DNA from: a virus
Virus record (IMG/VR): IMGVR_UViG_3300033121_000578
Span: 7,845 to 71,844 of that record
DNA length: 64,000 nucleotides
Direction: 5' to 3' (one strand)
Program-made: the position numbers and the translations under genes
Part shown: in pieces, positions 1 to 39,143 of the stretch
Layout: each line of letters opens with the position of its first letter
How positions within the stretch are numbered: position 1 is the first letter of the stretch
The notes under the pieces: generated by a model
Seen by the model: the letters and a program-made list of their open reading frames with translations, nothing else
Database searches by the model: none
Told to the model about the DNA's origin: nothing

Positions 1-101
1 AATGATATACGCTGGACATCTCTCTTTATAAGATTTCCTACATACGTCTTCATTTACCTAATTTAACGAGGCTATACCTCTCTTCATATTACTATGAAGT
101 T

Positions 102-131
102 AAAAAAGGTAGGGAGATTGCTCCCCCTACC
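102..131 (-). terminator. hairpin plus T-run terminator downstream of ORF 143-904
   Basis: GGTAGGG(N)CCCTACC stem at 108-131; the complement of the A-run 102-107 gives a U-tract on the minus strand. Confidence 0.5.
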
Positions 132-142
132 GCTACTCAAAA

Positions 143-904
143 TCAGAACACATAATTCAGGAATTTCTTTCCCAAATCAGATTGCTCCACCTCGGCACCG
201 TTTGCCTCCTCCAGAGCTGCAATGATAGCCTTATACAGCTTATCATAACGCACCTCCATCTCAGCACGCTCACGGTTGGTGATAGCACCGGAGAAGTCTT
301 GGGTTGTGTAGGAACCCGTAACTACCGGAGTATCAATGTTTTGTGTTACAGGAGGACGATTGGGGCTGTCCTTGATATGAGGGTCCTCAACGATGACTGT
401 CCTCTTCAGGGTAGTCTTCGTTTCACCCTTCTCAATGGGTGCCTCATAAATCTCCCTGCCTGAGAATACAGGGTCCTGTGTCTTGTTCCAGATTACTGTC
501 TCAGGACGGATGGGCAGGTTTTGTACCATATCCCGGAGTTTGCCATCCATAATACCCTTCAGACGGAGCAATTCCAGTGTGGTATACTTACCCCAGCTTT
601 GTCCGTCAACGACCAGTTCTGCACATACATTCTGTGCATTGGTCTTTTCGATAGACAACACTGTGGTGAGATAATCCTCACTGTGCTTCGTGAGCCACTG
701 AATCTGCTCATCAACAGTAGAGGATACATTCTGGAACTGACGCTTTTCAGGCTGGTCAGGGTGGTCGGGCTTAGCTTCAAAGGTCTTCCTTACGCCCATA
801 AAGAGACCTTGTTTGTTTTTGAACTTGGCGGACATATCGTCTACCATGTTTTTGTGGGATTTCTCCAGTTTCTCACGGAGTCCCAGTGCGACGCTCAGTT
901 TCAT
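143..904 (-). CDS. hypothetical protein (253 aa)
   Basis: long ORF, co-directional with the minus-strand block, terminator just 3'. Confidence 0.6.
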   Translation of the reverse strand: MKLSVALGLREKLEKSHKNMVDDMSAKFKNKQGLFMGVRKTFEAKPDHPDQPEKRQFQNVSSTVDEQIQWLTKHSEDYLTTVLSIEKTNAQNVCAELVVDGQSWGKYTTLELLRLKGIMDGKLRDMVQNLPIRPETVIWNKTQDPVFSGREIYEAPIEKGETKTTLKRTVIVEDPHIKDSPNRPPVTQNIDTPVVTGSYTTQDFSGAITNRERAEMEVRYDKLYKAIIAALEEANGAEVEQSDLGKKFLNYVF

Positions 905-1179
905 GCTGATTCTTTTTGTGGTTTAAGGGACTGATTTTTCTGATAGATTTCATCCCAGTTATAGGATGTTTCATCTATGAACTTGGCTTCAGTCTTCTGG
1001 CCAAATTCTTTCTCCCATTCTGCGAGGCGTTCAGGACGATTATCGTGCAAATCACCTTTTGCATAGCCTGAGCTACTACAGAAATGACTTGCAAGACAAT
1101 CACCTGTTTCTGGGTCAAAGATGTAAAAGGGAGAATCTGTCTTTACATTTGAACCCGGATAAATTACAAGGGTTTTCAT
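901..1179 (-). CDS. hypothetical protein (92 aa)
   Basis: ORF with 4-nt overlap coupling to neighbours. Confidence 0.5.
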   Translation of the reverse strand: MKTLVIYPGSNVKTDSPFYIFDPETGDCLASHFCSSSGYAKGDLHDNRPERLAEWEKEFGQKTEAKFIDETSYNWDEIYQKNQSLKPQKESA

Positions 1180-1379
1180 TCTTCATCCTTTTTTGAGGAC
1201 GATTCTCTCACACATGTTACTGTGATTGTGATATCCTCGTTACTGATTATGATATCCTCGTCCTTAAGATTTGCAGTATCTATTCCCATCTGGCGTGCTG
1301 CAAATGTCTTAGCCCAGCTAAGGATATCTGTCTTATCGTATACCACCCGTTGGGTAGTGGTTTCAGTATATGATGCCAT
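1176..1379 (-). CDS. hypothetical protein (67 aa)
   Basis: small ORF overlapping neighbour by 4 nt. Confidence 0.4.
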   Translation of the reverse strand: MASYTETTTQRVVYDKTDILSWAKTFAARQMGIDTANLKDEDIIISNEDITITVTCVRESSSKKDEE

Positions 1380-1569
1380 TTATTTCTTTTTTATTTTGAG
1401 ACGGGTTACCTCAACCTTCGAGGGACTCCACTTATCACATGACGTAATAAAGATATCCTTCATTAGTTCATCTGTAAGTTTACCTTGAAGTTTACCCTTC
1501 TTTTTCCTTACTTTTTCCCAAGCGTTCATAAAATTGTTTTAAAGGAGGGGTGGTTTCCCACCCTTCCTG

Positions 1570-2439
1570 TTAATAATCGTCTTCGTTGCTCCAGTTATCC
1601 TGCTTGGAGTACTCTTTCACTGTTTTGATGGCCTTATCAACAGGCACGCAATCAATACAGTGGTCAATTACTGCGTGCTTGAGTTCATCAATAGTGAGAG
1701 CGTTCTCTTCAGCCAGATAAGCAAACTTGCTCAGTTCCCTGTCCGTGATATGGGGCATCTTTGAGTGGATATAGTCCTTATATACCTCAATAGGCAGGGC
1801 CTTGATTTCAATGGTTAGTTTGATACGACTTCTTCTTTCCCGTATACGCTTGGGAATTTTGTTGAAGAAGTTGGTGCATCCAATGAAAATGCTCCTTTCA
1901 ATGGATTCAGTGCCGTCCAGAAAGGCCAGAAACTTTTCCTCATTACCACGAAAAGAGTTCTCAGCCTCATCCAGAAAGATAACAATCGGGTTATCCTGAA
2001 CGTCCCGGATTTTGTGACATACCAGCCTTATCCAGTCAGCATTATCGCCTGTGAAATCAATACACACAGCATTGAAATCACGTACAAGTTCACTCATAAT
2101 GAGCTGAACTGTGCAGGTTTTACCCGTGCCCGGAGGGCCATACATCAGAATACCCATCTTATGTGCCACACCCATCTGCTTATACATAGCAGTAACATTG
2201 GGTGAGAAAAAGTGGGTACACTTATCAATGACAGTACTAATAGCACCCGTCTTGAATTTGATGAGGTCTTCCTTTAATGTGACAGGAGATAACGATATTG
2301 CAGTAGGCTGGAAGGGGACACTTATATCATACGAGCTGTAAATTCCCGGAGGAAGTTTCTCATACTGTGTCTCGATGAGGTCCAGTCTCTGCATGATGAT
2401 ATCATGTCTGTCCCTGTGTTTAATGAAATTCGTTGCCAT
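1570..2439 (-). CDS. AAA+ family ATPase
   Basis: Walker A GPPGTGKT and Walker B IVIFLDEAE in a 289-aa ORF. Confidence 0.8.
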   Translation of the reverse strand: MATNFIKHRDRHDIIMQRLDLIETQYEKLPPGIYSSYDISVPFQPTAISLSPVTLKEDLIKFKTGAISTVIDKCTHFFSPNVTAMYKQMGVAHKMGILMYGPPGTGKTCTVQLIMSELVRDFNAVCIDFTGDNADWIRLVCHKIRDVQDNPIVIFLDEAENSFRGNEEKFLAFLDGTESIERSIFIGCTNFFNKIPKRIRERRSRIKLTIEIKALPIEVYKDYIHSKMPHITDRELSKFAYLAEENALTIDELKHAVIDHCIDCVPVDKAIKTVKEYSKQDNWSNEDDY

Positions 2440-2452
2440 GTGATTGGGGGTT

Positions 2453-2698
2453 TTAGTGATTATCTAGTAATTGTTCTAGTTCTTCGTATTCTTTCTTAGG
2501 ATATTGCAGATGTAACATATCCAAATGCCAAGCGTCTGTTCCTATATCACCCACGTACTCTGTTACTCTCTCAGACCATTGGTTATGATATATACCCTTG
2601 TATGGGCACAACTTCCATCTGCAGGTATGTGCATCCTTTCTGTCATATATAATTATACAGATAAGGAACACAAGCAGTATTTCGAGTATCTTTTTCAT
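2453..2698 (-). CDS. small protein with N-terminal hydrophobic segment (81 aa)
   Basis: ORF; N-terminal segment LEILLVFLICIII looks like a signal peptide or TM helix. Confidence 0.4.
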   Translation of the reverse strand: MKKILEILLVFLICIIIYDRKDAHTCRWKLCPYKGIYHNQWSERVTEYVGDIGTDAWHLDMLHLQYPKKEYEELEQLLDNH

Positions 2699-2741
2699 TG
2701 CAGTTAATTAAAAGGATACCCCATTTCTGAGGTATCCTTGG

Positions 2742-2978
2742 TTAAACTTTTGGCAGGTGAAGGAGAATCCTTTCTCCCTCCATAAGAACCAGCTCATCAC
2801 TATATGCCCTTACGGACATACCTAATTGATTCTCAAACACATAATCTGCCTCTGCCTCTATCTCCTTAGGGAGGAGTGGGACTGAATACTTTACTGTTCT
2901 CTGTCTTCCATCTGCATGGATATACAGTACAGTAAAGGGATTATGTGAGATTACCCTGTAGGCTACTGCTCTGGGCAT
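2742..2978 (-). CDS. hypothetical protein (78 aa)
   Basis: ORF in minus-strand block. Confidence 0.4.
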   Translation of the reverse strand: MPRAVAYRVISHNPFTVLYIHADGRQRTVKYSVPLLPKEIEAEADYVFENQLGMSVRAYSDELVLMEGERILLHLPKV

Positions 2979-3310
2979 TAGCTAAGCATTGGGGTGAGCA
3001 AATTCTTGGCCTTATCTACTTTCTCCACTTCCTGCAGCATCTCAGTCATTTTCTTGATAGAACCTCCGTTTTCGAGGTTAATCATGAGCATGAAGGAGAA
3101 CATCTCCACGGCCCTTTTGTTTTCATCAGTAGGTGCTACCTTATACTCCTTCAGGGCATCTTCGAGTTTCTCGATAATGTCTTCAGTAGGCATAATTGTA
3201 GCAGCCATAAACAGCAACTGTTTCATGTGACTTATTTTGGGGTTAATGAATACATAGAAAAGGACTAGTAGAGGGCTTAACGGACCCTCCATGAGGACAA
3301 ATATGTCCAC
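2978..3310 (-). CDS. hypothetical protein (110 aa; an internal Met near 3226 may be the real start)
   Basis: ORF in minus-strand block. Confidence 0.45.
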   Translation of the reverse strand: MDIFVLMEGPLSPLLVLFYVFINPKISHMKQLLFMAATIMPTEDIIEKLEDALKEYKVAPTDENKRAVEMFSFMLMINLENGGSIKKMTEMLQEVEKVDKAKNLLTPMLS

Positions 3311-3405
3311 CTCACCAAACTCACCTGTTTAGGGCATATTGTTCGGGAAACTAGTCCTACTCACTAACCCTCCATCATCACTGCTTTATAGTAATGAACG
3401 AGGGA

Positions 3406-3663
3406 TTAGCCACCCAGCTTTGCCATCAGCTCGGCAAGAGGGTTTTTGGCCTGTGAAATCAGGTCACCCAGCATAAAGCAGGATAACATCAGGCGTGTAG
3501 GGTCATCTTTGTACTTGTTGTACAGATGTTCCAGAGCCTTGGATTTGTTACCTGTTTCTGCAGCTTCAAAGACTTCAGGCTTGATTTCTTTGACGGCATC
3601 ATCGGGGAGAGACAGGCTCGCTGTGAGCGTCTTTTCTTCGTGTTTAAACTGTACTTGTTCCAT
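3406..3663 (-). CDS. hypothetical protein (85 aa)
   Basis: ORF. Confidence 0.5.
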   Translation of the reverse strand: MEQVQFKHEEKTLTASLSLPDDAVKEIKPEVFEAAETGNKSKALEHLYNKYKDDPTRLMLSCFMLGDLISQAKNPLAELMAKLGG

Positions 3664-4034
3664 ATATATGGGGTTTTAGTGAACACAAATAAAGAGAGCC
3701 AACCCACAAAGGCCAGCTCCCACTATCATCAGAGGTCGTTCAACACACAATCATATAACACAACCTCCGGGAATTATCCCATAGTCTCGGAGGACCATAC
3801 CACATTTCATAGGTTAGCTAAACCTATTTGTTGTGGGTTTAAGGCAGTCCTCATGCAGCTCGCACTAATCCCTTGATAGTCAAGGAGATAAGCCCAATAT
3901 AGTAGCACAATTACACCCTGCTTCTCAGATGTATTCCCTATACTTCGCACCCTTCGATACGTAATCTCAGGTGTATAAGGAGTGCTACTATTCTCTATGT
4001 CACTGATTCTCACAGTGATAGCAAAGGACTATTG

Positions 4035-4325
4035 CTAGTCCTGTTCAACCATTACTTCTTCAAGGATTTCCTCCAGTTTAACTTCACCCGGAGGCAATAT
4101 CTCTCTCAACTGGGATAATGGTACTCCCAGTTCAGTGCCTGTCAATAAGTTATGGCCTATTACACCTTCTTCAAATACAGCGTAACGACTCATACTTGCA
4201 AAGCAGAATCCGATATCCCGTATCATGTACGGGGTTTTCTCATCCATGACAGGTAACCACTTAACCTCAGGTCTTACATGGCCTTCTTTCATGGGAAGAA
4301 CGACAACAATGCTTCCTATCTTCAT
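4035..4325 (-). CDS. hypothetical protein (96 aa)
   Basis: ORF; followed upstream by a ~950-bp noncoding region. Confidence 0.5.
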   Translation of the reverse strand: MKIGSIVVVLPMKEGHVRPEVKWLPVMDEKTPYMIRDIGFCFASMSRYAVFEEGVIGHNLLTGTELGVPLSQLREILPPGEVKLEEILEEVMVEQD

Positions 4326-4657
4326 ATAGTGGAGTTTTAGTTTACATTATTGAAAATCTTATGTGAATAGTGAAACAGTCACGATAGGTAAGCTGTATAG
4401 ATGGGGCAGGATTTCATTTAAGGAGAGCTTATCCTCCAGCCCTGCTTTACTTGTTACCCTTCAGTTGGTCCTTCCAACCTATTGGTGCCCATTCAGCATC
4501 TCCATCTACCGTTGCTACAGGTGATTTGCTGTCCTGTAGGGGTGAATCTAACTACTCACATAAGATTTGTATCACTAGTCAGCCTCTAATTCATAGACAT
4601 GTACCAATGGCAGAATTTGCCGGGGTATGGCCTACTATAACTTGGCTGATATACCAC

Positions 4658-4730
4658 ATTCTCTTATATATGGTATATGATAGTTCTCACAAAATTTTCT
4701 CAGCTCCTAACCCTACTAGTATAAGAGAAT
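4658..4730. repeat. inverted repeat ATTCTCTTATA / TATAAGAGAAT within the large noncoding region
   Basis: arms at 4658-4670 and 4720-4730, about 11 bp perfect; flanking GATATACCA and ATATACCAG modules. Confidence 0.5.
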
Positions 4731-5066
4731 ATACCAGTATTACGGTTGCTCTGGCTAAGTAATAGGTTTTATAACAGTGCTTACTGAAGGCACCTATACC
4801 TACCTCTCTGATATGCTCCTCACGAGAGATTCTCCAAAAAACGTATTCCTACGTATTAAGAACTACTAACCTTAGTAGATACAATACTACCTATCCCCAT
4901 GTTTCAGTTGATTACAGATATAGAGGTAATTAAACATGGTTTGCCCTTATACAGGAAAAGGGCTGCTTTTAGTTAAAATTGTAATATACTGCACCAAATC
5001 TGACTTGGCAGATGGTATACTTCCACGAATCTTTCTCACATTTGGGGAAGGGTTTTAGAACACTAT

Positions 5067-5095
5067 TTTCCCACTTTTCCCCACTTTTTACCACA
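5067..5095. repeat. three tandem ~10-bp repeats TTTTCCCCAC-like
   Basis: ttttcccac, ttttccccac and tttttaccac follow one another directly; more CCCAC copies at 5111 and 5152. Confidence 0.5.
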
Positions 5096-5215
5096 TTTTG
5101 GCACAAAAAATCCCACCTTCGTACTCCACGGAGGCACTTTCCGCATCATATCTCCCACTTATTGCTTAAATCATAAATGAAAACGGTATACCTATCTGAG
5201 AGCTTTCAGTGGGGA

Positions 5216-5263
5216 CTTTTTTAAAAAACATAACCTACTACCAGTATTTCACCGATAGTAGGT
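5216..5263 (-). terminator. hairpin terminator downstream of ORF 5281-5886
   Basis: AACCTACTA(N15)TAGTAGGTT perfect 9-bp stem flanked by an A/T run; a U-tract on the minus strand. Confidence 0.55.
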
Positions 5264-5280
5264 TATATGATTTGCTGGGC

Positions 5281-5886
5281 TTAGTTCTTCTTACCAGCAC
5301 CTGCTGTAGCAGTAGGCTCAGGTGTTGCAGTAGGCTCAGGAGCCACGGCTGCTTTCTGCTGCTTTTCGTACTCTTCCATCCACTTCACCATATCTACAGG
5401 GCCTTCACCCTCATAGAGTTGTTTGATGGATGTTTGTACTTTAGCCCTGTTATCAGCAGCCAGCCTTCTGCCCTTACGACGGAAGGATTCACTGGTCAGC
5501 CAGATACGGGCAGGAGCAGTCAGGACAGCACGACCTCTTACCATCTGGTACTTGGGCTTGGATACATCCATTTTCAGGGTACCCTGATACCGCAGGCCAT
5601 CTGCAGTTTTGGTGAGACCCAGAGCCAGTTGGTTTACATCATCACCAGCCACATACACCTTGATATCCCGGATAGTGGGAAGTTTACCCTTGTCATTGGG
5701 GATACTGCCTTCAGCTACAAGCGGCTGCTTGAGCGTCAGTATCTTCAGGGTAACGCCTTCTTCACCATCAGGACCTGCAGCAGAGGAATCATCGTCAACC
5801 TTGACGATTTCCATTTCTACCTTAGGTTCGAGGCTGTTCAACAGTTCCAGACCGTGTAACAGTTTCTTTGTTTGTTCTTCGTTCAT
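5281..5886 (-). CDS. hypothetical protein with PEPTAT low-complexity C-terminus (201 aa)
   Basis: long ORF; C-terminal PEPTATPEPTATAGAGKKN. Confidence 0.6.
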   Translation of the reverse strand: MNEEQTKKLLHGLELLNSLEPKVEMEIVKVDDDSSAAGPDGEEGVTLKILTLKQPLVAEGSIPNDKGKLPTIRDIKVYVAGDDVNQLALGLTKTADGLRYQGTLKMDVSKPKYQMVRGRAVLTAPARIWLTSESFRRKGRRLAADNRAKVQTSIKQLYEGEGPVDMVKWMEEYEKQQKAAVAPEPTATPEPTATAGAGKKN

Positions 5887-6073
5887 AATTTTCAGATTTA
5901 GAAATTATTGTTAACAATAAATGAAAGACAACCACCGCCTACTCGCCCTGCTTGGTGGATTCATCATTTAAAAAAATAGGGCACCACAGATAAAAATATG
6001 ATGCATTTAATGATAAAAACAATCTGCAGCTCATGTTGCAGAACTGCAGATTGTTGTGTATCAGGCAGTTGTA

Positions 6074-6739
6074 TTATGCAATGTCCTTCAGGTCAAAGCC
6101 GTACATCCGTGCAGCATCAACCCTTTCCCTTGCAGAGATGCGTCCAAGCACCTGCATAGAGTGAAGACTGATGAGTGTGCACATAGCACGCTTGGGCAGA
6201 ACTTCCTCCTGTTTGCCATTCCATGTGGTGAGGCGAGGAGGAAAGATATCAACCATGCCCTTCTCCAGCTTAATCTTGAGGACAGGATACTCCTTATTCG
6301 TAGCAGGGTCCAGCCACTTCTTGGGCTTATTGCCATCCTTCACCTCATCAGCCTTAGCAGCCTTGACCTGCATGAAGAAATCAGTCATCCAGATTTCGTT
6401 CACATCCATGCTAAGCGTACCCATCTTATTGCCAAACTTACGCTTGAGCGTGCTGTTGACACCAACCATAGGCTTCAACAGCTTGAAGATGAAGAACTTA
6501 GTAACGTCCGGCATGGTATTGAGCTTCTCCTCAAGCTCCGTGTACTTCTTAGTATCACGCTTGAGCATGGCCTCATTAAGCTCAGCTTCAAGGGCCTTAC
6601 GCTCCTTATCATAACCCAGTTGGGTACGATAGAGAACGCATTCGAATTCTAAACCGTCTGTGCCATTGCTGGCATCGGAGTTGGTGATAACCTTCTCCAT
6701 GGCATCCTTAATGATGCCAATTTGCATGATGTCTTTCAT
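6074..6739 (-). CDS. hypothetical protein (221 aa)
   Basis: long ORF; the plus-strand ORFs 6056-6652 and 6171-6614 are antisense shadows. Confidence 0.6.
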   Translation of the reverse strand: MKDIMQIGIIKDAMEKVITNSDASNGTDGLEFECVLYRTQLGYDKERKALEAELNEAMLKRDTKKYTELEEKLNTMPDVTKFFIFKLLKPMVGVNSTLKRKFGNKMGTLSMDVNEIWMTDFFMQVKAAKADEVKDGNKPKKWLDPATNKEYPVLKIKLEKGMVDIFPPRLTTWNGKQEEVLPKRAMCTLISLHSMQVLGRISARERVDAARMYGFDLKDIA

Positions 6740-6830
6740 TTGTTAACAATTTGTGCTTACTCTCTTTTTTATAACAGGTTTGTTCAGCGTCTTCCCTGTT
6801 TCCACATTTTTAGCCTAATAGTGGTAACTG

Positions 6831-7097
6831 TCAGCTTTTGGCAGGTTGCTGACTACCTTCTTTAATTGTGAATTGCTCAGTTGCTTTATATGTGAATACT
6901 ATGATTTTCAAAGCTCCCCATGTCATAATCCCATCAAAATCAGGGGCATTTACCAGAAGTTTGCAGATTTCAGGACTAATCTTTTCCCTGAAACATTTCA
7001 CAATATGATATGACCCAATAATAAACTCAGAAACCTCATGTGGATAACCACTCACAGTGAGTGCATCCGACAACTGACTCAATTGATAAATTGTCAT
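6831..7097 (-). CDS. hypothetical protein (88 aa)
   Basis: ORF. Confidence 0.45.
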   Translation of the reverse strand: MTIYQLSQLSDALTVSGYPHEVSEFIIGSYHIVKCFREKISPEICKLLVNAPDFDGIMTWGALKIIVFTYKATEQFTIKEGSQQPAKS

Positions 7098-7157
7098 AAT
7101 TTACCTCCTTGATTTGTAGCCAATTAGGTTGTTAAGACCAGTTGGCTGGGTTAATAA

Positions 7158-7544
7158 TTAAGATTTCTTCCAGTTTTCGTCAACAGTGGGTTCAGGTGTA
7201 GGTTTGTTGGGCCTAACATAAGCAGGTTTAACATCACCTACATATTCTTTGATGATGTTAATAGACTCATGGAATTCCAACTCGGCCCGAAGAATGTCAA
7301 CGAATTCTTCAATTGTTGCTCCCTCCTTGTACTTGAGGCTATTACAGTTGCCAACGTGTGACATGATAATGTCCCTGACACTTGCTTTGGGCAACAATTT
7401 GGTCAGGTAGCTCAGCACATTCTTGCTGACAATTACCAAATCAATACCCTCATTAAGATTAGCAACCAATACAGGTGCCTCTTTACCATTCGGTAAAGCC
7501 ACCATTTCGTGCTGATTCACAGCTTCTTGTGCATTCTTGTTCAT
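7158..7544 (-). CDS. hypothetical protein (128 aa)
   Basis: ORF. Confidence 0.55.
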   Translation of the reverse strand: MNKNAQEAVNQHEMVALPNGKEAPVLVANLNEGIDLVIVSKNVLSYLTKLLPKASVRDIIMSHVGNCNSLKYKEGATIEEFVDILRAELEFHESINIIKEYVGDVKPAYVRPNKPTPEPTVDENWKKS

Positions 7545-7576
7545 ATCTGTAATCGTGGTGTTTTGTCACCACTTGA

Positions 7577-7620
7577 GCCAGAGTGGGACTCGAACCCACT
7601 CCATCCTCCAAGTCTGGCTT
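7577..7620 (-). pseudogene. tRNA-derived minihelix / 3' fragment (acceptor plus T-arm only)
   Basis: minus strand reads AGCCAGA-(13 nt)-GTGGG TTCGAGT CCCAC-TCTGGCT-C; perfect 7-bp acceptor and 5-bp T-stem but no D or anticodon arm. Confidence 0.4.
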
Positions 7621-7622
7621 AA

Positions 7623-7922
7623 CTAACGCAATGAAAGCCTGAGTTTATACTCGGATAACTTATCAATAATCTCTTTTATGCTCTTTTCACCACAGTTCCT
7701 GATTTTGGATAAATCCTCAATAGTATAGGTTGAGGTAAAATGCTCCAACGTATCATCAAGTACTCTTCCATCTAATTGGTAAAGAATATTGATGATTCTT
7801 GCGTTATATCCAAATACATCACGCATAGTTGGCTCAATATCAGGTTTTTGTAACTCTTCAGCTATCTCCTTAAGACTGTCTGCAATACCATGCAAAATTC
7901 TTGAGATTTTACTTTTGTTCAT
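7623..7922 (-). CDS. RNA polymerase alpha-subunit C-terminal-domain-like HhH DNA-binding protein
   Basis: C-terminal LSKIRNCGEKSIKEIIDKLSEYKLRLS closely matches the alpha-CTD motif [22 protein letters not shown] (recalled from memory). Confidence 0.55.
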   Translation of the reverse strand: MNKSKISRILHGIADSLKEIAEELQKPDIEPTMRDVFGYNARIINILYQLDGRVLDDTLEHFTSTYTIEDLSKIRNCGEKSIKEIIDKLSEYKLRLSLR

Positions 7923-7935
7923 AGTTTAGCCCTCC

Positions 7936-8175
7936 TTAGGCTACATTTTGTTTTATACGTGGATAAAGTGCAGTATCCAACTCCTTAACCATGCCCTCAT
8001 CCTCGAACTCTTCGAGCAGTTCAAAGGAATGTGTCTGCTTTAGTTCTGCTAAAGAGTTGGCATAGACTATATTGCCAGTTACGGCATTATGGCCAATGGC
8101 AAACCTCTTGTCTGATTCGTGTGCCACAACCACTCCCTCAGACCAGATGGTTGTATAGGCAATAAACTTGTTCAT
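7936..8175 (-). CDS. hypothetical protein (79 aa)
   Basis: ORF; its start lies inside the 19-bp repeat TCATGTTGTCTAGTTTTAA. Confidence 0.5.
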   Translation of the reverse strand: MNKFIAYTTIWSEGVVVAHESDKRFAIGHNAVTGNIVYANSLAELKQTHSFELLEEFEDEGMVKELDTALYPRIKQNVA

Positions 8176-8190
8176 GTTGTCTAGTTTTAA
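8172..8190. repeat. 19-bp exact direct repeat, copy 1 (copy 2 at 8330-8348)
   Basis: tcatgttgtctagttttaa occurs twice; on the minus strand it spans the stop of one gene, AACTAGACAAC and the ATG of the next. Confidence 0.6.
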
Positions 8191-8333
8191 TCCTTACTAA
8201 GTGCAGCTGCACCAGCAAGGCATGTAATTGTTAACAATACAAATATCCAGTGTGTTTCGACAGCACACATGAATATCGTTGCAGCTACGATTAGGAACAC
8301 CGTCAGCCCCTTCTCAAATTGTTGTTTTGTCAT
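8187..8333 (-). CDS. small membrane protein (48 aa)
   Basis: unlisted minus-strand ORF MTKQQFEKGLTVFLIVAATIFMCAVETHWIFVLLTITCLAGAAALSKD, bounded by the two repeat copies. Confidence 0.35.
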   Translation of the reverse strand: MTKQQFEKGLTVFLIVAATIFMCAVETHWIFVLLTITCLAGAAALSKD

Positions 8334-8344
8334 GTTGTCTAGTT

Positions 8345-8659
8345 TTAAGATTTATAATAATTATCAATATCAGTGTCCTTACACATGGCATCGAGAATAG
8401 GATAGTTATTGACCACTAAATCATTGAATGACAAGCATTTATTTGCCATTACAACGATATAATAATTCTTATCCTTTTTATGATGGATATGCATCACACG
8501 ACATACACAGCCATTGTGTTTGATACGAATACCATCACCCTCAATGATAAGAGGACGCTTGACAGGCAATCTGTCACGAATGACCTCAATACCATATTTG
8601 ATAAGGAAGCCCCGATAAGACATCTCATCCTTCGGGACCTTAAACATAATTGTACTCAT
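8345..8659 (-). CDS. hypothetical protein (104 aa)
   Basis: ORF. Confidence 0.5.
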   Translation of the reverse strand: MSTIMFKVPKDEMSYRGFLIKYGIEVIRDRLPVKRPLIIEGDGIRIKHNGCVCRVMHIHHKKDKNYYIVVMANKCLSFNDLVVNNYPILDAMCKDTDIDNYYKS

Positions 8660-8958
8660 GACTTTTGAGTTGATTGTTTGATATAATAGATGTCAATCAT
8701 TATTCCATTCAAATCACGAATACATTCATGAACGAAATGAATGGATGTCCAAAGTCTGTCTCGTTCTTTAAAGAACTCATCTCTTGTAAAGAAACGAACA
8801 GGTGTGTGCATCAGCCTTTGGGACAATACAACATTTCGGCCATTAATGTTGTACATGTGTCCTACGATAGTAATCATAATAATAAATGACAGTAGGATGT
8901 CAGCCTTTAATTTGTTGCCGTAATTTAATGTCATACTCAGTAATAACACCAATGTCAC
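8656..8958 (-). CDS. small membrane protein (start may be the Met at ~8877)
   Basis: hydrophobic ORF; the conserved 30-bp element lies immediately 5' of the internal Met MITIVGH. Confidence 0.45.
   Translation of the reverse strand: MTLVLLLSMTLNYGNKLKADILLSFIIMITIVGHMYNINGRNVVLSQRLMHTPVRFFTRDEFFKERDRLWTSIHFVHECIRDLNGIMIDIYYIKQSTQKS
8886..8915. repeat. 30-bp direct repeat containing palindrome TGACA-N6-TGTCA, copy 1 (copy 2 at 9197-9228)
   Basis: near-identical ATGACAGTAGGATGTCAGCCTTTAATTTGTT at both sites; on the minus strand each copy sits immediately 5' of an ATGATTA start. Confidence 0.6.
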
Positions 8959-9187
8959 TGATAATCAATTGCTTACTGTATGTGAGAAGCAGGATAAATG
9001 GTACAACCATTGTCCAATATACTATCTCATCAGCTCCCTCAATCGAGTGGATTAATATACCACATACTGTAATGCAGATGATAACAAATGCCCACAAGCA
9101 CCTGATAATCCGCCTGTTGCGTTTCTTCATCTTGTTGTTGTGAATTATCAACTGTAACTCACTGGAGATTGTCTGTTTCATAATCAT
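8900..9187 (-). CDS. small membrane protein (95 aa)
   Basis: hydrophobic ORF; conserved 30-bp element immediately upstream. Confidence 0.45.
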   Translation of the reverse strand: MIMKQTISSELQLIIHNNKMKKRNRRIIRCLWAFVIICITVCGILIHSIEGADEIVYWTMVVPFILLLTYSKQLIISDIGVITEYDIKLRQQIKG

Positions 9188-9380
9188 AATTATTAAGTGA
9201 CAGTAGGATGTCAGCCTTTTAATTTGTTTATCAATCTGGAATTCTTTGATATTGCACTAAATGTGGTAGTTCTTCTACCACAGTTTAGCTTCAGAACCCT
9301 GTTTCGTTCTTTAGAACTCATCAGCAGAACCACACAGTTCTGGACAGGAAGCAGTTTAACGAGATGCTCAGCTCAGGTGA

Positions 9381-9581
9381 TTAATGATTAACCCAAATTG
9401 ACCTCTCTCTTTTAGAGGAAATCAATTTAGCTGATGCACAATCTCTAATCCCCTTATAAAGAAGTCTTTTAGCTTCTCCAAAAGATATTTGTTTCGAATG
9501 TGTCATCCTCTCACCTAAATACCACCAATTAATAACTAAAGTGATGGTACGTGTTTGTTCCTGCCTTTCGGCTGTCATCAT
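9381..9581 (-). CDS. hypothetical protein (66 aa)
   Basis: ORF; last gene before the divergent region. Confidence 0.3.
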   Translation of the reverse strand: MMTAERQEQTRTITLVINWWYLGERMTHSKQISFGEAKRLLYKGIRDCASAKLISSKRERSIWVNH

Positions 9582-9654
9582 ATTTTATTGTTTTAGTTGT
9601 AAAATAATTTTGATTTGATTTTTCTGGAGTTTTTTAGAGTTTGCTGCCATTTAG

Positions 9655-9794
9655 GTAGGGGGTACAGGCAGCTTCATCTTTCACCCCGGTACCTTTTATA
9701 CATCTGTTCCCCAACTCTCTGCACACAAAAAATTTTGAAACCAAAGGGTAGGGGGTATCTATAGGAGGGGTACCTTTAAGGGGAGGGGGTACTC
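9655..9794. repeat. GGGGTAC iteron-like repeats (4-5 copies) in the divergent intergenic region
   Basis: GGTAGGGGGTAC 9655-9666, GGGTAGGGGGTATC 9746-9759, GGAGGGGTACC 9764-9774, GGGAGGGGGTACTC 9781-9794, CCCCGGTACC 9684-9693. Confidence 0.6.
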
Positions 9795-9874
9795 TGTAGG
9801 AAAGTACCTATTCTTCTCTGCCCTCCCCGTATTTTGGCTAATACGTTAATGTCTTGTTAACATTCCCCTATATT

Positions 9875-9907
9875 TTTGGATTTGCCCTTATAATTAGTGT
9901 ATATTTG
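9875..9907 (+). promoter_or_regulatory. Bacteroidetes-type promoter (-33 TTTG, -7 TATATTTG) for the plus-strand block
   Basis: TATATTTG at 9900-9907, TTTG at 9875-9884; the ATG at 9912 is only a few nt downstream. Confidence 0.5.
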
Positions 9908-9911
9908 TTGT

Positions 9912-10112
9912 ATGGAATTGAAATTCAAACATTTAGTAAATGAGATGATTGAGAAGGGATGGAGGGTATACTATTTTGGTACATTCCCGCCCTCTGGGAT
10001 ATTAGATAATATGTGTCATGCACGCAACTTGGAGATGCTTACCTACGAGGGTAAGCCTTTTTTATTTGTAAGAGATAAGTATAAGAAGGAGGTAAAGAAT
10101 GAGAAGAAATGA
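9912..10112 (+). CDS. hypothetical protein (66 aa from ATG 9912; the listed ORF starts at GTG 9897)
   Basis: first ORF after the divergent promoter. Confidence 0.4.
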   Translation: MELKFKHLVNEMIEKGWRVYYFGTFPPSGILDNMCHARNLEMLTYEGKPFLFVRDKYKKEVKNEKK

Positions 10113-10338
10113 TTACTCACGTATTATAGAGTTAATACGTAATATGTTTCCGCACTCTACAGATGTGCGTATAGAGGTAGATACTAATAGGAAGGATATT
10201 GAACACTTTTCGAAAATTATTTATGAACACTCTGAGAATCAATTTGTTAAACCGGGAGAAAATCCTGAGGATAGGATATACTCTCGTTTTAGGACACCAT
10301 TTGGGATGATATCATTAAATAATAAAGATGGAAAATAA
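10099..10338 (+). CDS. hypothetical protein (79 aa)
   Basis: ORF. Confidence 0.45.
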   Translation: MRRNDYSRIIELIRNMFPHSTDVRIEVDTNRKDIEHFSKIIYEHSENQFVKPGENPEDRIYSRFRTPFGMISLNNKDGK

Positions 10339-10507
10339 CTACGAACTTATTGGTGAAGATAAACATAGGTCACCAATCTATTTTGTTCCTGATATAGAGG
10401 ATATAAGAGTAGGATATGAATGTGAAACAGCTAAAGCTAGAGTTAAAAGATTGGGGAGCAACTTAGATAACTATAATAGACATAAACACATTCAGATATA
10501 TTTGTAA
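10328..10507 (+). CDS. hypothetical small protein (59 aa)
   Basis: unlisted ORF MENNYELIGEDKHRSPIYFVPDIEDIRVGYECETAKARVKRLGSNLDNYNRHKHIQIYL that fills the gap. Confidence 0.3.
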   Translation: MENNYELIGEDKHRSPIYFVPDIEDIRVGYECETAKARVKRLGSNLDNYNRHKHIQIYL

Positions 10508-15854: not shown

Positions 15855-16157
15855 ATGTTAGTAGCAGTCGATACAGTAAAAGATTTAGGGAAGGTAAAGA
15901 AGGGAAGTCCTTACTCCTTCCAGTTTGCATTAAGAAACAACGGACAGAACGAAGTTATAATTGACAGAATATCAGTAGGTTGTGGGTCCTGTACAAAGGC
16001 ATCCACCTCTAAGGTAAAGCTTGGTCCGGGAGATACATCAAATATAGATGTAATCTTTACTCCGGGTTCTACTGGTACCCAACAAAAATTCGTGAATGTG
16101 CAGTGGAATAGGGATAATCTCTTGAAGCTGACATTTACAGCAGATTCATATGAGTAA
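15855..16157 (+). CDS. DUF1573-like small protein (a Bacteroidetes-type domain)
   Basis: about 100 aa with NNGQNEVIIDRISVGCGSC, resembling the DUF1573 CGC signature (from memory). Confidence 0.45.
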   Translation: MLVAVDTVKDLGKVKKGSPYSFQFALRNNGQNEVIIDRISVGCGSCTKASTSKVKLGPGDTSNIDVIFTPGSTGTQQKFVNVQWNRDNLLKLTFTADSYE

Positions 16158-17925
16158 AGTTAAATTCATAGAAGATACACACCAGTATTTGACAGAAGAT
16201 GGAAGAGAGTTAATCTCAGTGTCAGCATTTACAGAAAGATTTAAACCAAAAGTTGATTGGAAAGCAGTTGCCAAAAAGGTAGCAGCAAAAAAGACAAAAG
16301 CCGGAGAACCAACTACCACCGAGGAAATCCTTAAGAAGTGGGAGGAGAAGAGGGATTTATCTGCCAAAATAGGAACAATTTTTCACTCTATTAAGGAAGA
16401 AGAGTTGTTGGGGCAGGAAAATCCCATCTTTTATAATACACCATGTTCTACTAAGGAGTGCCTCTATACAGGAACAGACAAGTGGTCAATTCCCATTAAT
16501 AAGCTGGAGAATAATACCGTATATCCAGAATTAATGATATATGACATAGAGCATATGATTTGTGGACAATCAGATAAAGTAATTGTTGCCAACAATAAAA
16601 TAAATATCTGGGACTATAAAGGTTTGGCTCTTGATACAATAATACCTACAGAGACAGGATTTAAACTAATGGCTGATATTCAGGTTGGTGATAGGATTTT
16701 TGACGGAGAAGGTATATTAACATCAGTCAAGCATATTTCTGAAATACATTATAATCCATGTTACAGGGTATTTTTTGATACAGGTGATAGTATAGTATGT
16801 GACCATGAACATAAATGGGAGATTTCACACAGACTCTCAAAAGGTAAATATAAAGATTTAGAGAAAAGAACTGATGAATTATTCTCATATTTTGGTAAAG
16901 GTAAACCTATAAGAATAAAATGCAACCCTTTGGTTTTACCTAAAATTGAACTTCCTATAGACCCTTATATTTTAGGAGTGTGGTTAGGAGATGGTAACTC
17001 ACATGCTGGTAGAATTACAAATATGAATCCGAATTTATGGATAGAAATAGAGAAAAGAGGATATACTCTTGGGAAAGATATTTCAGGAGGTAGTTCTGGC
17101 AAAGCTCAGGATAAAACAATATTTGGATTAGAAACTCAATTAACAAAACTTGGATTACTTAAAAATAAACATATTCCTGATATATATCTTAGAGGGTCTT
17201 ATGAACAAAGATTAGATTTACTTCGTGGTCTTATGGATACAGATGGTAGTTGGAATAAAAAGAGAAAAAGATGTGTGATGGTTACAACAAAAGAATGGCA
17301 AGCTAATGGAATATCTGAAATAGTTTCGTCTCTTGGTTGGAAACCAACTATTATTAAAGCCAAAACATCAGGTTTTGGTAAAGATAATATATCTTGTTTT
17401 CATGTTAATTTTGATGCTAAGGAAAATCCATTTCTAACAAAGAATGAAGATTATAAACCTAATAATAAGGAGAAATCTAATTATAGATATATAAAAGAAA
17501 TAAGGAAGATAGATAGTATACCGACAAAATGTATATCTGTAGATAGTCCTGCTCATACATATCTTGTCACCAGAAATTACATAAAAACTCATAATACTGA
17601 CGCAGAGATAAAGTTTAAGGCTTTTTCTAGTCAGTGGGTAAAACCACAGAAGCTACTTGGACCATTGGCACACCTAGATGACTGTAATGCTAATATCTAT
17701 TCTATTAAGATGTCATTGTACATGTATCTTTTATGGAGAGCAAACAGGGGAACACTTAGGACGGGTGATATTATGATTGAGCATGTACATCTTGAGAGAG
17801 ATGAAGATGGACTTCCGATTCTTGAAGATGGCAAACCAATTGTAAAAAAGATTGAGCAAATCCAATTACCCTATCGAAAGAAGGAAGTTATGGATATGCT
17901 AGCAACCCTAAAAGTAAAAGCATGA
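16150..17925 (+). CDS. PD-(D/E)XK (RecB/Cas4/YqaJ-like) nuclease interrupted by an intein-like Hint plus LAGLIDADG homing-endonuclease insertion
   Basis: extein GQSDKV...IWDYKG|...|TDAEIKF gives D...DYK nuclease motifs. The insertion (about residues 158-482, nt ~16621-17595) starts with LALDTIIPTETG...VGDRIF (block A-like), has two LAGLIDADG motifs (ILGVWLGDGNSHA, LLRGLMDTDGSW) and ends with YLVTRNYIKTHN|T (block G HN plus Thr +1). Confidence 0.8.
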   Translation: MSKVKFIEDTHQYLTEDGRELISVSAFTERFKPKVDWKAVAKKVAAKKTKAGEPTTTEEILKKWEEKRDLSAKIGTIFHSIKEEELLGQENPIFYNTPCSTKECLYTGTDKWSIPINKLENNTVYPELMIYDIEHMICGQSDKVIVANNKINIWDYKGLALDTIIPTETGFKLMADIQVGDRIFDGEGILTSVKHISEIHYNPCYRVFFDTGDSIVCDHEHKWEISHRLSKGKYKDLEKRTDELFSYFGKGKPIRIKCNPLVLPKIELPIDPYILGVWLGDGNSHAGRITNMNPNLWIEIEKRGYTLGKDISGGSSGKAQDKTIFGLETQLTKLGLLKNKHIPDIYLRGSYEQRLDLLRGLMDTDGSWNKKRKRCVMVTTKEWQANGISEIVSSLGWKPTIIKAKTSGFGKDNISCFHVNFDAKENPFLTKNEDYKPNNKEKSNYRYIKEIRKIDSIPTKCISVDSPAHTYLVTRNYIKTHNTDAEIKFKAFSSQWVKPQKLLGPLAHLDDCNANIYSIKMSLYMYLLWRANRGTLRTGDIMIEHVHLERDEDGLPILEDGKPIVKKIEQIQLPYRKKEVMDMLATLKVKA

Positions 17926-18658: not shown

Positions 18659-20941
18659 ATGTTTTGGCAATATCCATTAAAAATACAAAGATACGACTCG
18701 GAGAACCAACAATGGGGTCACGTAGAATTTGCAGACCATGCAGAGTTTGTTGCATTTGTTAAAGACCAATTTAAGGAGTCACCTGACAAATATAAACTCA
18801 GAAATGTTAAGAACTTCCAAATGGAGGGACTTAAGTATGCAGAGGAAGCAAAGAAGAGTGGAAAACCCAACTTTGAGGGAGGTGTGTATACCAAAGCTAT
18901 AAAGGGAACACACGCTTGGAAGAAATACTGGAGAAACGAGAAAGATAAAGTACTAAATGGAGTTATAATAGATGACTGGTATCTACCTCCCTTCTATTAC
19001 TGGTACTTGAACTTCTGTCCAATATATGTGGACATAGAGAAGAAGAAAAGACTTCCCAGTGTTTGGGACGGAGACCTGTGGTATATGCATTATGTAATGC
19101 TTGCTTTATTAACAGGTAAACACGTTGGGGGAGTAAAGGGTAGACAGAAAGGTTACTCATACAAGCATATGGCCATCTTATATTGGTGCTACTGCTGGTT
19201 TGAGAACAGTGTAAATACTGTAGGAGCCTTTGCTGAGGATTTGGTAAAGAAGAGCTGGAGATTCTTAGAGGGATATAGGAAGCATATCAATTCTAATACA
19301 GCTTGGAAGAGAGGTCCAACTCTCCCCAAATCTCTTGAGTGGCATGAGGTAACAGTTGGTAAGGATAATAATCCATATGGTTTATCCTCTAAGCTGGCAG
19401 GTGTTACCTTCAAGCAGTCACCCTCAAATGACGTAGGTGGTGCCCAGACATTCTTCAACTACGAAGAACCGGGTGTAGCTCCTACTCTTTTAGAGACGAT
19501 AGAATTTATTCGTCCTGCCTTGGAGAAAGGTTCTGAGACTACAGGTACTATTATAGCCTGTGGTTCAGTTGGTGAACTGGAGGATGCAGAGGGATTGAAG
19601 GCAATCTTCTACAACCCAGAAGACTATAACTTCCTAGGTGTTAAGAATATCTGGGATAAGGTTATAACACCAGAAAATGAGACATGTTGTATCTTCATAT
19701 CTGAGGCATATAACATGCTTGGTAAGGATGATGTAACTAGTAAACCATTCATGGATGAAAATGGTAACTCAGATGTAGAGTTGGCTATGGAGTGGATAGC
19801 TCGTCAGGAGGAAAAGATTCGTTCCTCTACGAAGAAAGCTGAATTAAAACAGCTACAGTTATCCCAGAAGTGTACATCTCCTCAACAGGCATTTGACCAG
19901 AGAACATTATCAGAATTCCCAATCCAGCTACTGAAGAAGCAGCAGGAGAGAATTAAGCTAAAGGAACAAACCAATAGTTGGGAATTCAAACCTCAAAAGG
20001 GATTATTCGAGGAAACAGATGGTAAGGTAGTTCTTAATACAAGAAATCTTCCACCAGAACACGGATATCCTGTTAACCCTGAATGGGAAGATAAAAGAGG
20101 TGTTTGGACTCTATATGAGTTACCAGACGAAAACGCAGAGTTCTTTACATATTTTGCATGTGTGGATGCTATCGAAGTTGATGATACATCTACCTCTTCA
20201 TCTATAGCTTCTGTTGATATCTTTAAGACGGCTGTAGAAGTCAGTTATAAAGATAAAGATGGTAAGATAAAGACAAGAATAGAGGGAGATAAGTTAGTAG
20301 CAACGTATAGAGGTCGTTTCAAAACAGCAAAGGAAACAAATCATCAGATTTGGTTAGGACTAAAATTATATAATGCCTTTACCTACGCTGAACGAAATAA
20401 GCCAAACTTTATCAATTATATGAGAGAAATTGGTAAAGCTGAGAAGTATCTGGCAAAAGAGAGTGATGTTCCTATGTTTAAGGACCTCAACATAAAGTCA
20501 GGTAATGTTGCTAATAACTCTAAATTCGGATTCCATAAAGGTGATAATACTGAGATATGGAAATACTTTAAGGCATATGCAAAAGAGTACTTCCATACAG
20601 AATTTGGAAGGAGTACCTTTACAAAGAACGGACAAGAAGAGGTTCTAAAGATATTCACAGGCATAGATAGAATAGATGACTACTGGCTCCTTGAGGAATT
20701 TATAAGATATGTAGAGGTTAAGGGAAGAGCTAAAGGAAACTATGACCGTCTTGTATCATTTATGGGAGCACTCTTCATATGTAAAATATATCAACAAAAC
20801 AGGTTTATAAAAAGAAAATCTGAAGTAGTTGATGAACAACCAAAACAACAATATAAACAACCAAGAAGAACAAATATGCTTGGAGGAGGTTTTAAAACCT
20901 TCGTCTCCAACAAGCCTAGAAAACCCTTCTCAATGCTTTAA
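18659..20941 (+). CDS. probable terminase large subunit
   Basis: 760 aa immediately before the portal-like gene; P-loop-like GVKGRQKGYS (compare T4 gp17 SRQLGKT); C-terminal Asp-rich segment ACVDAIEVDDTS...SVDIFK resembles a terminase nuclease motif. Confidence 0.55.
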   Translation: MFWQYPLKIQRYDSENQQWGHVEFADHAEFVAFVKDQFKESPDKYKLRNVKNFQMEGLKYAEEAKKSGKPNFEGGVYTKAIKGTHAWKKYWRNEKDKVLNGVIIDDWYLPPFYYWYLNFCPIYVDIEKKKRLPSVWDGDLWYMHYVMLALLTGKHVGGVKGRQKGYSYKHMAILYWCYCWFENSVNTVGAFAEDLVKKSWRFLEGYRKHINSNTAWKRGPTLPKSLEWHEVTVGKDNNPYGLSSKLAGVTFKQSPSNDVGGAQTFFNYEEPGVAPTLLETIEFIRPALEKGSETTGTIIACGSVGELEDAEGLKAIFYNPEDYNFLGVKNIWDKVITPENETCCIFISEAYNMLGKDDVTSKPFMDENGNSDVELAMEWIARQEEKIRSSTKKAELKQLQLSQKCTSPQQAFDQRTLSEFPIQLLKKQQERIKLKEQTNSWEFKPQKGLFEETDGKVVLNTRNLPPEHGYPVNPEWEDKRGVWTLYELPDENAEFFTYFACVDAIEVDDTSTSSSIASVDIFKTAVEVSYKDKDGKIKTRIEGDKLVATYRGRFKTAKETNHQIWLGLKLYNAFTYAERNKPNFINYMREIGKAEKYLAKESDVPMFKDLNIKSGNVANNSKFGFHKGDNTEIWKYFKAYAKEYFHTEFGRSTFTKNGQEEVLKIFTGIDRIDDYWLLEEFIRYVEVKGRAKGNYDRLVSFMGALFICKIYQQNRFIKRKSEVVDEQPKQQYKQPRRTNMLGGGFKTFVSNKPRKPFSML

Positions 20942-37757: not shown

Positions 37758-38240
37758 ATGAAAACCTTAATACTATGTAGCCATTGCGGAAATTCTTTTG
37801 AAGCAGAAAACAAATATATTAATTATAGTAAGAAAAAAGGATGGAATTTATATTGCTCGGAGAATTGTAAATTTGCAGGAAAGAAAAAATCTGAGGTATG
37901 TAATTGTCATACCTGTGGAAAATCTGTGATTAAAACACCATCCTCTAAAAAGAGGTCAATAAGTGGAAAGGTTTTCTGCAGTAGAAAATGTTCTACAATA
38001 TTTACTAATTCTGAATATAAAACAGGAGAAAGGCATCCTAATTATAATAATGGATTATCTTCTTATAGACAAAGAAAATTAAGAAGTGGCAATAACAAGT
38101 GCGAAGATTGTGGAAACTCTGATATAAGAGTATTAGAGGTTCACCATAGAGATGAAAATAGAAAGAATAACTCTCTTGAAAATTTAGCAATTCTTTGTGC
38201 TAATTGTCACAGAATAAGACATTTCGAGAATGTGGTGTAA
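37758..38240 (+). CDS. HNH homing endonuclease with N-terminal CxxC zinc-finger repeats
   Basis: C-terminal EVHHRDENRKNNSLENLAILCANCHRIRH is an HNH motif; multiple CxxC pairs. Confidence 0.75.
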   Translation: MKTLILCSHCGNSFEAENKYINYSKKKGWNLYCSENCKFAGKKKSEVCNCHTCGKSVIKTPSSKKRSISGKVFCSRKCSTIFTNSEYKTGERHPNYNNGLSSYRQRKLRSGNNKCEDCGNSDIRVLEVHHRDENRKNNSLENLAILCANCHRIRHFENVV

Positions 38241-38294: not shown

Positions 38295-38298
38295 ACTG

Positions 38299-38323: not shown

Positions 38324-38328
38324 CACAA

Positions 38329-38402: not shown

Positions 38403-38407
38403 CATAT

Positions 38408-38434: not shown

Positions 38435-38441
38435 AAATAAA

Positions 38442-38473: not shown

Positions 38474-38490
38474 TATTATAATACAAAATT

Positions 38491-39137: not shown

Positions 39138-39143
39138 CATAAT

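Follow-up and report, generated by a model that had tools for sequence, protein, structure and literature searches.

A G-rich block at the divergent gene junction of crAss-like phages is a probable docking site for phage-encoded machinery

Introduction

What reads a cluster of short G-rich repeats that sits exactly where the two gene arms of a phage genome part? The question is raised by a 64,000-nucleotide (nt) stretch of viral DNA, positions 7,845 to 71,844 of IMG/VR record IMGVR_UViG_3300033121_000578 (hereafter the window, meaning this whole stretch), in which several copies of the motif GGGGTAC lie between a leftward and a rightward block of genes. Phage control regions with arrays of binding sites are well known, and an earlier reading of the sequence, here called the original prediction, had taken the copies for operator or initiator sites. 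Sequence comparison identifies them as extra copies of the G-rich core of a conserved non-coding element that stands at the same junction in many crAss-like phages, and phage-encoded machinery probably docks on this element to start early transcription or, possibly, replication. What appears to be new is the G-box core, its same-strand lattice of about 28 nt and the fact that several crAss-like lineages, the two main laboratory models among them, share it at the early/late junction; a description of the element was not found in the literature. In the gut, crAss-like phages rank among the most abundant viruses, and the recognition site of their injected polymerase and the place where their replication starts are two basic questions. 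An unannotated short element, conserved across families and located where early transcription must begin, provides a target of 60–90 bp in two cultured model phages, and its natural variants (none to four extra boxes, or A/T repeats instead) are ready-made comparisons. Should it prove to be merely the site of a local regulator, the result would be a useful if ordinary annotation.

Results

The gene arms of the window diverge at 9.6–9.9 kb, with a minus-strand arm on the left and a plus-strand structural arm on the right. In the map of open reading frames (ORFs), the gap between them measures 330 bp (9582–9911) and is bounded by a minus-strand ORF of 66 amino acids (aa) at 9381–9581, the first of its arm, and by a plus-strand ATG at 9912, and the G-rich copies do sit at this point of divergence. 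Exact GGGGTAC occurs at 9659, 9767 and 9786, accompanied by the variants GGGGTAT at 9752, GGTACC at 9688 and 9769 (each GGTACCTTT; two such copies had been predicted) and AGTACC at 9803, all on the plus strand. The proposed cluster of four to five copies is real, since four GGGGTA fall within about 130 bp as against a maximum of two per 150 nt in 500 first-order Markov simulations of the window. The motif is strand-specific and, elsewhere in the window, rare: three of the five GGGGTAC in the whole 64 kb, both strands counted, belong to the junction, as do all three plus-strand copies of GGGGGTA and four of the nine plus-strand copies of GGGGTA.

The left part of the cluster is a conserved junction block at 9650–9734 (plus strand), recovered by nhmmer with a profile of 18 relatives (E=1e-7) and composed of a first G-box (G1), a spacer of about 28–30 nt, a second G-box (G2), a C-rich box and CACACA (alignments A4 and A5). 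G1, GGGGGTAC at 9658–9665, is enclosed by the arms GCTGCC (9643–9648) and GGCAGC (9667–9672) of a plus-strand inverted repeat spanning 9643–9672, and its G-run is invariant in both alignments. Thirty nt past G1 follows a degenerate G2, CCCCGGTACC at 9684–9693 (plus strand), which aligns with GGGGTATC in relative L128, GGGGGTC in L131 and GGGGAG in a large clade. Of the predicted copies, the one at 9659 is therefore G1 of this block and the one at 9688 its degenerate G2. Straight after the block comes an A6T4 tract (9727–9736), and beyond it a plus-strand tandem array of two 34-bp units (9744–9811) that holds four G-boxes: GGGGGTAT (9751–9758), GGGGTACC (9767–9774), GGGGAGGGGGTAC (9779–9792) and AAAGTACC (9801–9808). 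Tandem Repeats Finder describes the array as a 34-nt unit in 1.9 copies at 9744–9809 with 81% identity, equivalent to four half-units of about 17 nt; its G-runs start 16, 13 and 5 nt apart, and its boxes are spaced by 15–19 nt. The locus accordingly carries direct repeats of one unit in at least three regularly spaced copies, namely four half-units in the window and, in relatives, two to six G-runs on a lattice of about 28 nt. A second inverted repeat, TAAGGGGAGGG/CCCTCCCCGTA (9777–9831, 33 nt between arms, 91% complementary), overlaps the last G-box.

The source of the window is a distant crAss-like phage, as judged from its proteins and gene order. A PHROG search matched a crAss-type terminase (18659–20941, phrog_6681) and portal (20944–23739, phrog_6547), the portal sharing 22–25% identity with the portals of Crassvirales and of Leptolyngbya phage Lbo-JY46, and these two genes are found together with two opposed gene arms and giant late ORFs. 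By synteny with phage phi14:2, we infer that the minus-strand arm is the early arm and that the plus-strand arm is transcribed by the host; the former (1–9581) has a G+C content of 0.42 and the latter (9912–64000) of 0.36. BLAST of the window region against deposited phages, near and distant, gave no match. Relatives were collected with a two-sequence terminase alignment, a scan that returned 80 loci with amino-acid identities from 81% down to about 33%. A scan of IMG/VR for motif triplets was also tried as a route to relatives and abandoned, as it mostly retrieved unrelated tandem repeats and a sole true relative, L030.

About 24 of the 80 terminase-found relatives carry the block, and many of the remaining loci stop short of the junction. 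The block profile detected 25 loci including the window, on the terminase strand every time, and further ones were seen by eye. Overall, more than 50 uncultured relatives share the arrangement of G1, about 28 nt and G2, with neither the junction nor the orientation changing. The shared block is about 85 nt long (alignments A3 and A4). G1 typically reads GGGGGTA(C/G), commonly within a GGGG-N-CCCC palindrome, and adjoins the first early-arm gene; G2 begins 27–30 nt past it as GGGGAG in the large clade, and as GGGGTATC or GGTACC in the window's lineage. After G2 stand a C-rich box, TAGGACCC or, in the window's lineage, CCCCAAC, then CACACA and usually an A/T tract. All G-run-bearing blocks that were examined carry their G-runs on the strand that codes for the structural arm and serves as template for the early arm.

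What is conserved in relatives is the core and not the tandem array: GGGGGTA(C/G) was present at the syntenic junction of every relative examined, whereas the three closest relatives outside the window's own strain cluster, L128 (81% identity), L129 (71%) and L130 (67%), have the block followed by A/T-tract repeats and lack the array. Such repeats take its place at 4390–4450 in L128, 920–1000 in L129 and 735–810 in L149, the last with five copies of TAAATTTTAAAAA. One or two extra boxes are found in L131 (54%), and one to four extra G-runs lie between block and rightward promoter in many relatives at about 33%. The spacer between block and rightward promoter thus seems to tolerate, or to require, repeated rigid tracts of either kind.

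An independent sample was drawn by scanning IMG/VR for GGGGAG-N7-11-TAGGACCC, leaving G1 and the array unspecified. Among the 120 stretches found, 40 had a G-run 26–31 nt upstream, and 31–33 of these were distinct genuine blocks. Extra G-runs numbered none in eight, one in nine, two in eleven, three in three and four in two of 33 blocks, and were located mainly 53–59 and 82–87 nt past G2, with about one third (for example at +63–78 and +92–93) off the lattice. Adjacent G-runs were spaced by 27–29 nt in 27 of 58 cases in the first sample, with minor peaks near 14, 56 and 84 nt, and in 45 of 82 in the independent sample, about 31 of those 45 being the G1–G2 spacing used for selection. Runs of five or more G outnumbered runs of five or more C by 72 to 5 in the independent sample. 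All on one strand, the G-runs tend to a lattice of about 28 nt, with G1 as position 0 and the others at 1, 3, 4 (and 5). At the place of the window's A6T4, an A/T homopolymer tract occurs in 23 of 31 independent blocks and also in crAss001, phi14:2, Flavobacterium phage Fpv2 and Lbo-JY46; such tracts are equally compatible with an unwinding region and with UP-like promoter elements.

Among near-identical strains the array is stable while its surroundings change. Seven contigs, 96–100% identical to the window, keep it with just the lengths of the G-runs varying. On the early-arm side the strains are mosaic: window positions 9385–9557 are non-homologous in L001, L003, L006 and L007, the first early-arm ORF encodes 66, 74 or 152 aa depending on the strain (L001–L007), and other ORFs replace the window's version. 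In L002 the flank is unrelated to the left of window position 9705, and the G1 allele GACGGGGGTACAGTCAG is nevertheless kept. On the other side of the junction, five of these strains (L002, L003, L004, L006 and L007) contain an insert of at least about 890 nt at window position 10422–10427 that encodes a GIY-YIG homing endonuclease and is absent from the window, L001 and L005.

The block also occurs in cultured and reference phages. crAss001 carries GGGGGTAGGACCCC and, after 28 nt, GGGGGAGG, at 133/161 of its record, with the start of gp1 45 nt away; A-tracts and a TTTG-N20-TATCTTTG promoter come after the block. phi14:2 has GGGGATACTCCCC, 29 nt and GGGGG between g110 and g111 on the structural-arm strand, a weak profile match (E=0.018 in the 358-nt junction). 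In Fpv2 the G-runs are at 357 and 385 and precede an A/T tract, and in Lbo-JY46 they are at 124515/124542 of the record, at a divergent junction that coincides with the cumulative-skew minimum of the complete genome. Alignment A5 displays the two G-runs as invariant columns in all ten sequences, and the orientation relative to the structural arm is identical in the four reference phages and all profile matches. Same-strand pairs of runs of at least four G spaced by 26–31 nt are otherwise scarce: the junction pair is unique in the scanned sequence of phi14:2 and Fpv2 (0.01–0.03 expected), and the first 50 kb of crAss001 have no other on the plus strand (0.77 expected) and one more on the minus strand. 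The block is single-copy in Lbo-JY46, the one complete genome scanned in full, and has a single locus in the window too. By BLAST, the crAss001 version is conserved in 36 records, unannotated in almost all.

The annotation of crAss001 (L334, MH675552.1) deserves a comment here. At 230–290 a plus-strand ATG (about 276) comes after its canonical TTTG-N20-TATCTTTG promoter, while GenBank places gp2 (279–680) on the minus strand; the true divergent junction of crAss001 appears to be 88–275 and not 681–998.

To the right of the G-boxes, a pattern scan located a host-type promoter of the Bacteroidota kind, P_R (9875–9914, plus strand), with TTTG at 9875–9878, 21 nt, TATATTTG at 9900–9907 and, 4 nt on, the ATG at 9912, so that the ORF 9912–10112 behind it has a leaderless or near-leaderless start. 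The predicted consensus promoter therefore exists, with its ATG close by and as a Bacteroidota type, although "immediately upstream" overstated the position of the repeats: P_R begins about 65 nt past the last G-box copy, and the array lies 90–160 nt upstream of it. A TATAAT at 9889–9894 has no −35 partner. Ten plus-strand matches to TTTG-N17-23-TAnnTTTG occur in the window, nine of them intergenic with a gene ATG 4–33 nt past the −7 box. At the junction, the sigma-A pattern of Bacteroidota (−33 TTTG and −7 TAnnTTTG near a gene start) is present at 9875–9907 only, which is P_R, and not at the G-boxes. The layout of P_R is that of crAss001 and of the mapped middle promoter region of phi14:2 g110; it resembles the tripartite middle promoters (A-tract, −33 and −7 boxes) that host RNA polymerase uses in phi14:2, whereas the G-boxes lie outside that motif and accompany no other promoter of the window. 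Promoter type differs between phages, being TTTG/TAnnTTTG in the window, crAss001 and phi14:2 and TATAAT ahead of the first structural-arm gene in Lbo-JY46, a cyanobacterial phage record. Because the block persists while the host-type promoters differ, its reader is probably phage-encoded, and we consider that the G-boxes are probably read by conserved phage machinery and not by a host sigma factor.

Discussion

The idea that the copies are binding sites in a control region is reasonable, given that they are local, strand-specific, placed at the divergence and conserved in their core. As operator or initiator sites in the sense of the original prediction they fit less well, with the array 90–160 nt from the promoter and no repressor, Cro or Rep gene flanking it. 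Comparison with relatives speaks rather for an element that belongs to the head of the early arm and has phage-encoded machinery as its reader.

A guide to that machinery is phi14:2, in which the early class comprises the whole replicative arm, is rifampicin-resistant and is transcribed by the virion polymerase gp66, an enzyme that uses single-stranded templates and for which no promoter motif was found; no common motif was detected upstream of the early transcripts, and g110, the first gene of the other arm, has a mapped promoter for host RNA polymerase (doi 10.1101/2020.03.07.982082). Because the arm beside G1 in phi14:2 is transcribed by the virion polymerase without a known promoter motif, we propose G1/G2 as the early entry site, and two facts guide the choice of this reading: the block persists where the host-type promoters differ, and everywhere it sits beside the early arm, whose template strand carries the G-runs. 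Conserved phage-encoded machinery would make contact at the G-boxes; G1/G2 would be read by the virion polymerase or by a factor guiding it; early transcription would enter or initiate there, leftward in the window; and the extra G-boxes would serve as further upstream docking sites between the early start and P_R. We put this forward tentatively, as the account to pursue first even though it may well turn out wrong. Its sharper form, in which the crAss-type virion RNA polymerase uses the block as promoter or landing site and reads it from the template strand, with the extra boxes of the window as more entry sites, would provide the first promoter for that enzyme, common to members of the Steigviridae (crAss001, phi14:2) and several other crAss-like lineages; this we regard as doubtful.

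Virion-polymerase early promoters known from other phages offer a parallel, namely P1–P3 of N4 and the AT-rich pre-early promoters of Thermus phage P23-45: the block likewise heads the first-expressed arm and appears to be read by the phage. As with the pre-early promoters of P23-45, the motif is kept among relatives that share the polymerase, and its boxes are on the template strand of the early arm. The N4 promoters differ in being hairpins with 5–7-bp stems and 3-nt loops for a T7-like enzyme, whereas the hairpin signal of the block is weak, with stems of 3–7 bp and loops of 1–18 nt around G1. Moreover, the crAss-type polymerase is a two-barrel enzyme without a known promoter, and the block occupies one locus in the Lbo-JY46 genome and in the window and does not stand in several copies before early operons. 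An N4-like hairpin reading was dropped.

Several observations weigh against an early entry site. In no phage has a transcription start been mapped to the block, and since the early starts of phi14:2 share no motif, a promoter in the block would serve the first early transcript only. The first early ATG lies 77 nt from G1 in the window, as against 27–33 nt in one sub-clade, about 45 nt in crAss001, about 75 nt in phi14:2 and about 770 nt in Lbo-JY46, and the array of the window departs from the lattice of about 28 nt. That the early arm is short of host-type promoters is not borne out statistically (none on the sense strand in 9.65 kb of the window; 0.054 versus 0.079 per kb in the pooled relatives), and the shortage was not counted as evidence. 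By the gene order of Lbo-JY46 and phi14:2, the place of the virion RNA polymerase gene corresponds to a giant plus-strand ORF that starts at 60379, encodes at least 1207 aa and continues past the window end at 64000; its identity as that polymerase is unconfirmed, as PDB and PHROG searches gave no match and the DFDxD catalytic motif would fall beyond the window. Finally, crAss002 shows no G-runs in the 366 nt at the 5' end of its record, upstream of the first structural-arm gene, the other side of the junction being the unread 3' end of the record; for that reason, presence in all Crassvirales is not claimed.

The best-surviving alternative is that the junction is a replication origin, with the G-boxes as iterons for a conserved phage initiator, the A/T tract as unwinding element and bidirectional replication from the junction. 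A conserved single-copy element whose direct repeats vary in number, keep to a regular lattice and have an A/T tract beside them would suit this reading, and so would the resemblance of a conserved motif with varying copy number to DnaA-box clusters. The cumulative G–C minimum coincides with the block in Lbo-JY46 and in the window (9742, within the divergent junction), yet skew tracks gene orientation equally well. Gene orientation switches at the minimum, which therefore gives an origin no independent support: the skew check suggested for the prediction yields its minimum, while replication and transcription direction are not separable. Ori-Finder places an origin at the equivalent junction of prototypic crAssphage (PMC10983915). 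In lambda ori, the P1, F and R6K origins and the DnaA-box clusters of oriC, short repeats in one orientation and variable number similarly lie beside an A/T-rich stretch, intergenic and at a skew turning point, whereas iteron origins are built from 17–22-bp units every two helical turns (about 22 bp) and adjoin their initiator gene. The block has a core of about 7–8 bp on a spacing of 28 bp (or 14–17 bp), eight of 33 blocks consist of G1 and G2 alone, and no initiator gene stands beside it. Origins are commonly located inside genes of the replisome-organizer type, as in lambda O and SPP1 G38P. In phi14:2 such a gene, the Rep_Org gene g022, is about 14 kb from the block. Taken together, we judge an origin somewhat unlikely.

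A related search, for a binder encoded in cis, bears on the view that the boxes are a classical operator array, bound cooperatively by a dedicated repressor or activator that might loop boxes 84 bp apart and switch the divergent promoters between early and later expression. Pfam and PHROG searches of the small flanking ORFs in the window and relatives returned no Rep-like, helix-turn-helix (HTH) or Cro-like match; the only DNA-binding-like hit is a 99-aa ORF resembling RNA_pol_A_CTD, 1.7 kb away, and a conserved first early-arm protein of about 110 aa in one sub-clade has neither a family match nor a homologue in the window. The palindromic form of G1 in several phages, such as GGGGTACCCC in L171 and L203, would befit an operator, boxes three lattice units apart (about 84 bp, eight helical turns) would share one helix face, and in several relatives the last G-run abuts the −33/−7 boxes of the rightward promoter. 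From one relative to another, though, the last box is 5 to more than 110 nt away from that promoter, which speaks against a fixed activation geometry, and the window has 65 nt between the end of its array and the −33 box. Lambda OR/OL similarly group several related sites between two divergent transcription units, but they are spaced palindromes with flanking repressor and Cro genes, and the sites of the block are direct, half-site-like repeats. Operators also usually diverge fast, whereas this core is the same across family-level distances and in hosts of two phyla, and an operator array is accordingly unlikely.

That the array of the window has no function of its own, being a recent slippage duplication of a 34-bp G-box unit in a variable spacer in which only G1 and G2 matter, would agree with its simple 1.9-copy tandem structure, its off-lattice spacing and its replacement by A/T-tract repeats in L128–L130. 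We think this improbable, because extra G-runs recur independently at lattice positions in distant lineages (25 of 33 blocks have them) and because seven strains with recombining flanks keep the array unchanged bar G-run length.

It is very unlikely that the same-strand runs act through DNA structure, by forming a G-quadruplex (G4) or seeding R-loops that block or prime polymerases. The strand bias is strong, a scan that allowed loops of up to 12 nt gave a sole extended-loop G4 motif for the window, in the array at 9746–9783, and strand-specific G-runs near promoters also mark the control regions of mitochondrial conserved sequence block (CSB) II and ColE1 RNA II. A canonical G4, with four tracts of at least three G and loops of 1–7 nt, was not found in the window, however, and in most relatives, with runs 27–29 nt apart and often only two of them, the spacing is too long for an intramolecular G4. 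A G-rich RNA across the runs is unlikely as well, since the sub-clade with only 27–33 nt between G1 and the early ATG has no space for a rightward promoter upstream of G1.

Still less can be said for a structured non-coding RNA or 5' leader, such as a protein-sponge RNA with G-rich loops. Each array unit of the window can form a 3–4-bp hairpin with the G-run in its loop, and phi14:2 produces abundant early non-coding RNAs, though from other intergenic regions (doi 10.1101/2020.03.07.982082). Rfam 15 gave just noise for window positions 9300–10200 at E<=10 and no match at gathering score for the element in the window or eight relatives; RNAalifold found zero conserved pairs in 18 sequences; and folding z-scores were about −1 on both strands, the G1 hairpin having a mean z of −0.86 with p<0.05 in five of 27 sequences. 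With these results the structured-RNA reading was dropped as highly improbable.

A packaging signal or physical genome terminus is just as implausible: several same-species contigs end at 9253–9751 and two start at 9711 and 9751, but the breaks arise because the strain-variable flank interrupts assemblies there, large contigs of L128–L130 run uninterrupted through the block, the Lbo-JY46 record has no terminal repeat and the terminase genes are 8.5 kb off, so that the contig ends were rejected as evidence.

Other features of the window and its relatives

Away from the junction, 17 tRNA genes lie within the structural arm at 38225–42028 (plus strand), mixed with short ORFs and host-type promoters. 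The 591-aa ORF at 16150–17925 (plus strand) contains an extra segment of about 320 aa (~16625–17585) that is missing from its homologues in L128–L131; with a LAGLIDADG-like domain match at aa 353–406, this segment looks like an intein with a homing endonuclease. In the early arm, the 99-aa minus-strand ORF mentioned above (7623–7922) matches PF03118, the C-terminal domain of the RNA polymerase alpha subunit, with 31.8 bits against a cut-off of 23.8, and may encode a phage UP-element-binding protein or a mimic of that domain. The minus strand at 9289–9330, in the gap that parts the first early-arm ORF from the second, contains a hammerhead-like core, CUGAUGAG...CGAAAC, which scores 20.9 bits, under the Rfam gathering score of 34. 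The early arms of relatives contain a full Hatchet ribozyme (L172, 1997–2130, minus strand, 82 bits) and a RAGATH-1 hammerhead (L164, 3046–3124, minus strand, 57 bits), and self-cleaving ribozymes may process early-arm transcripts in the window's clade.

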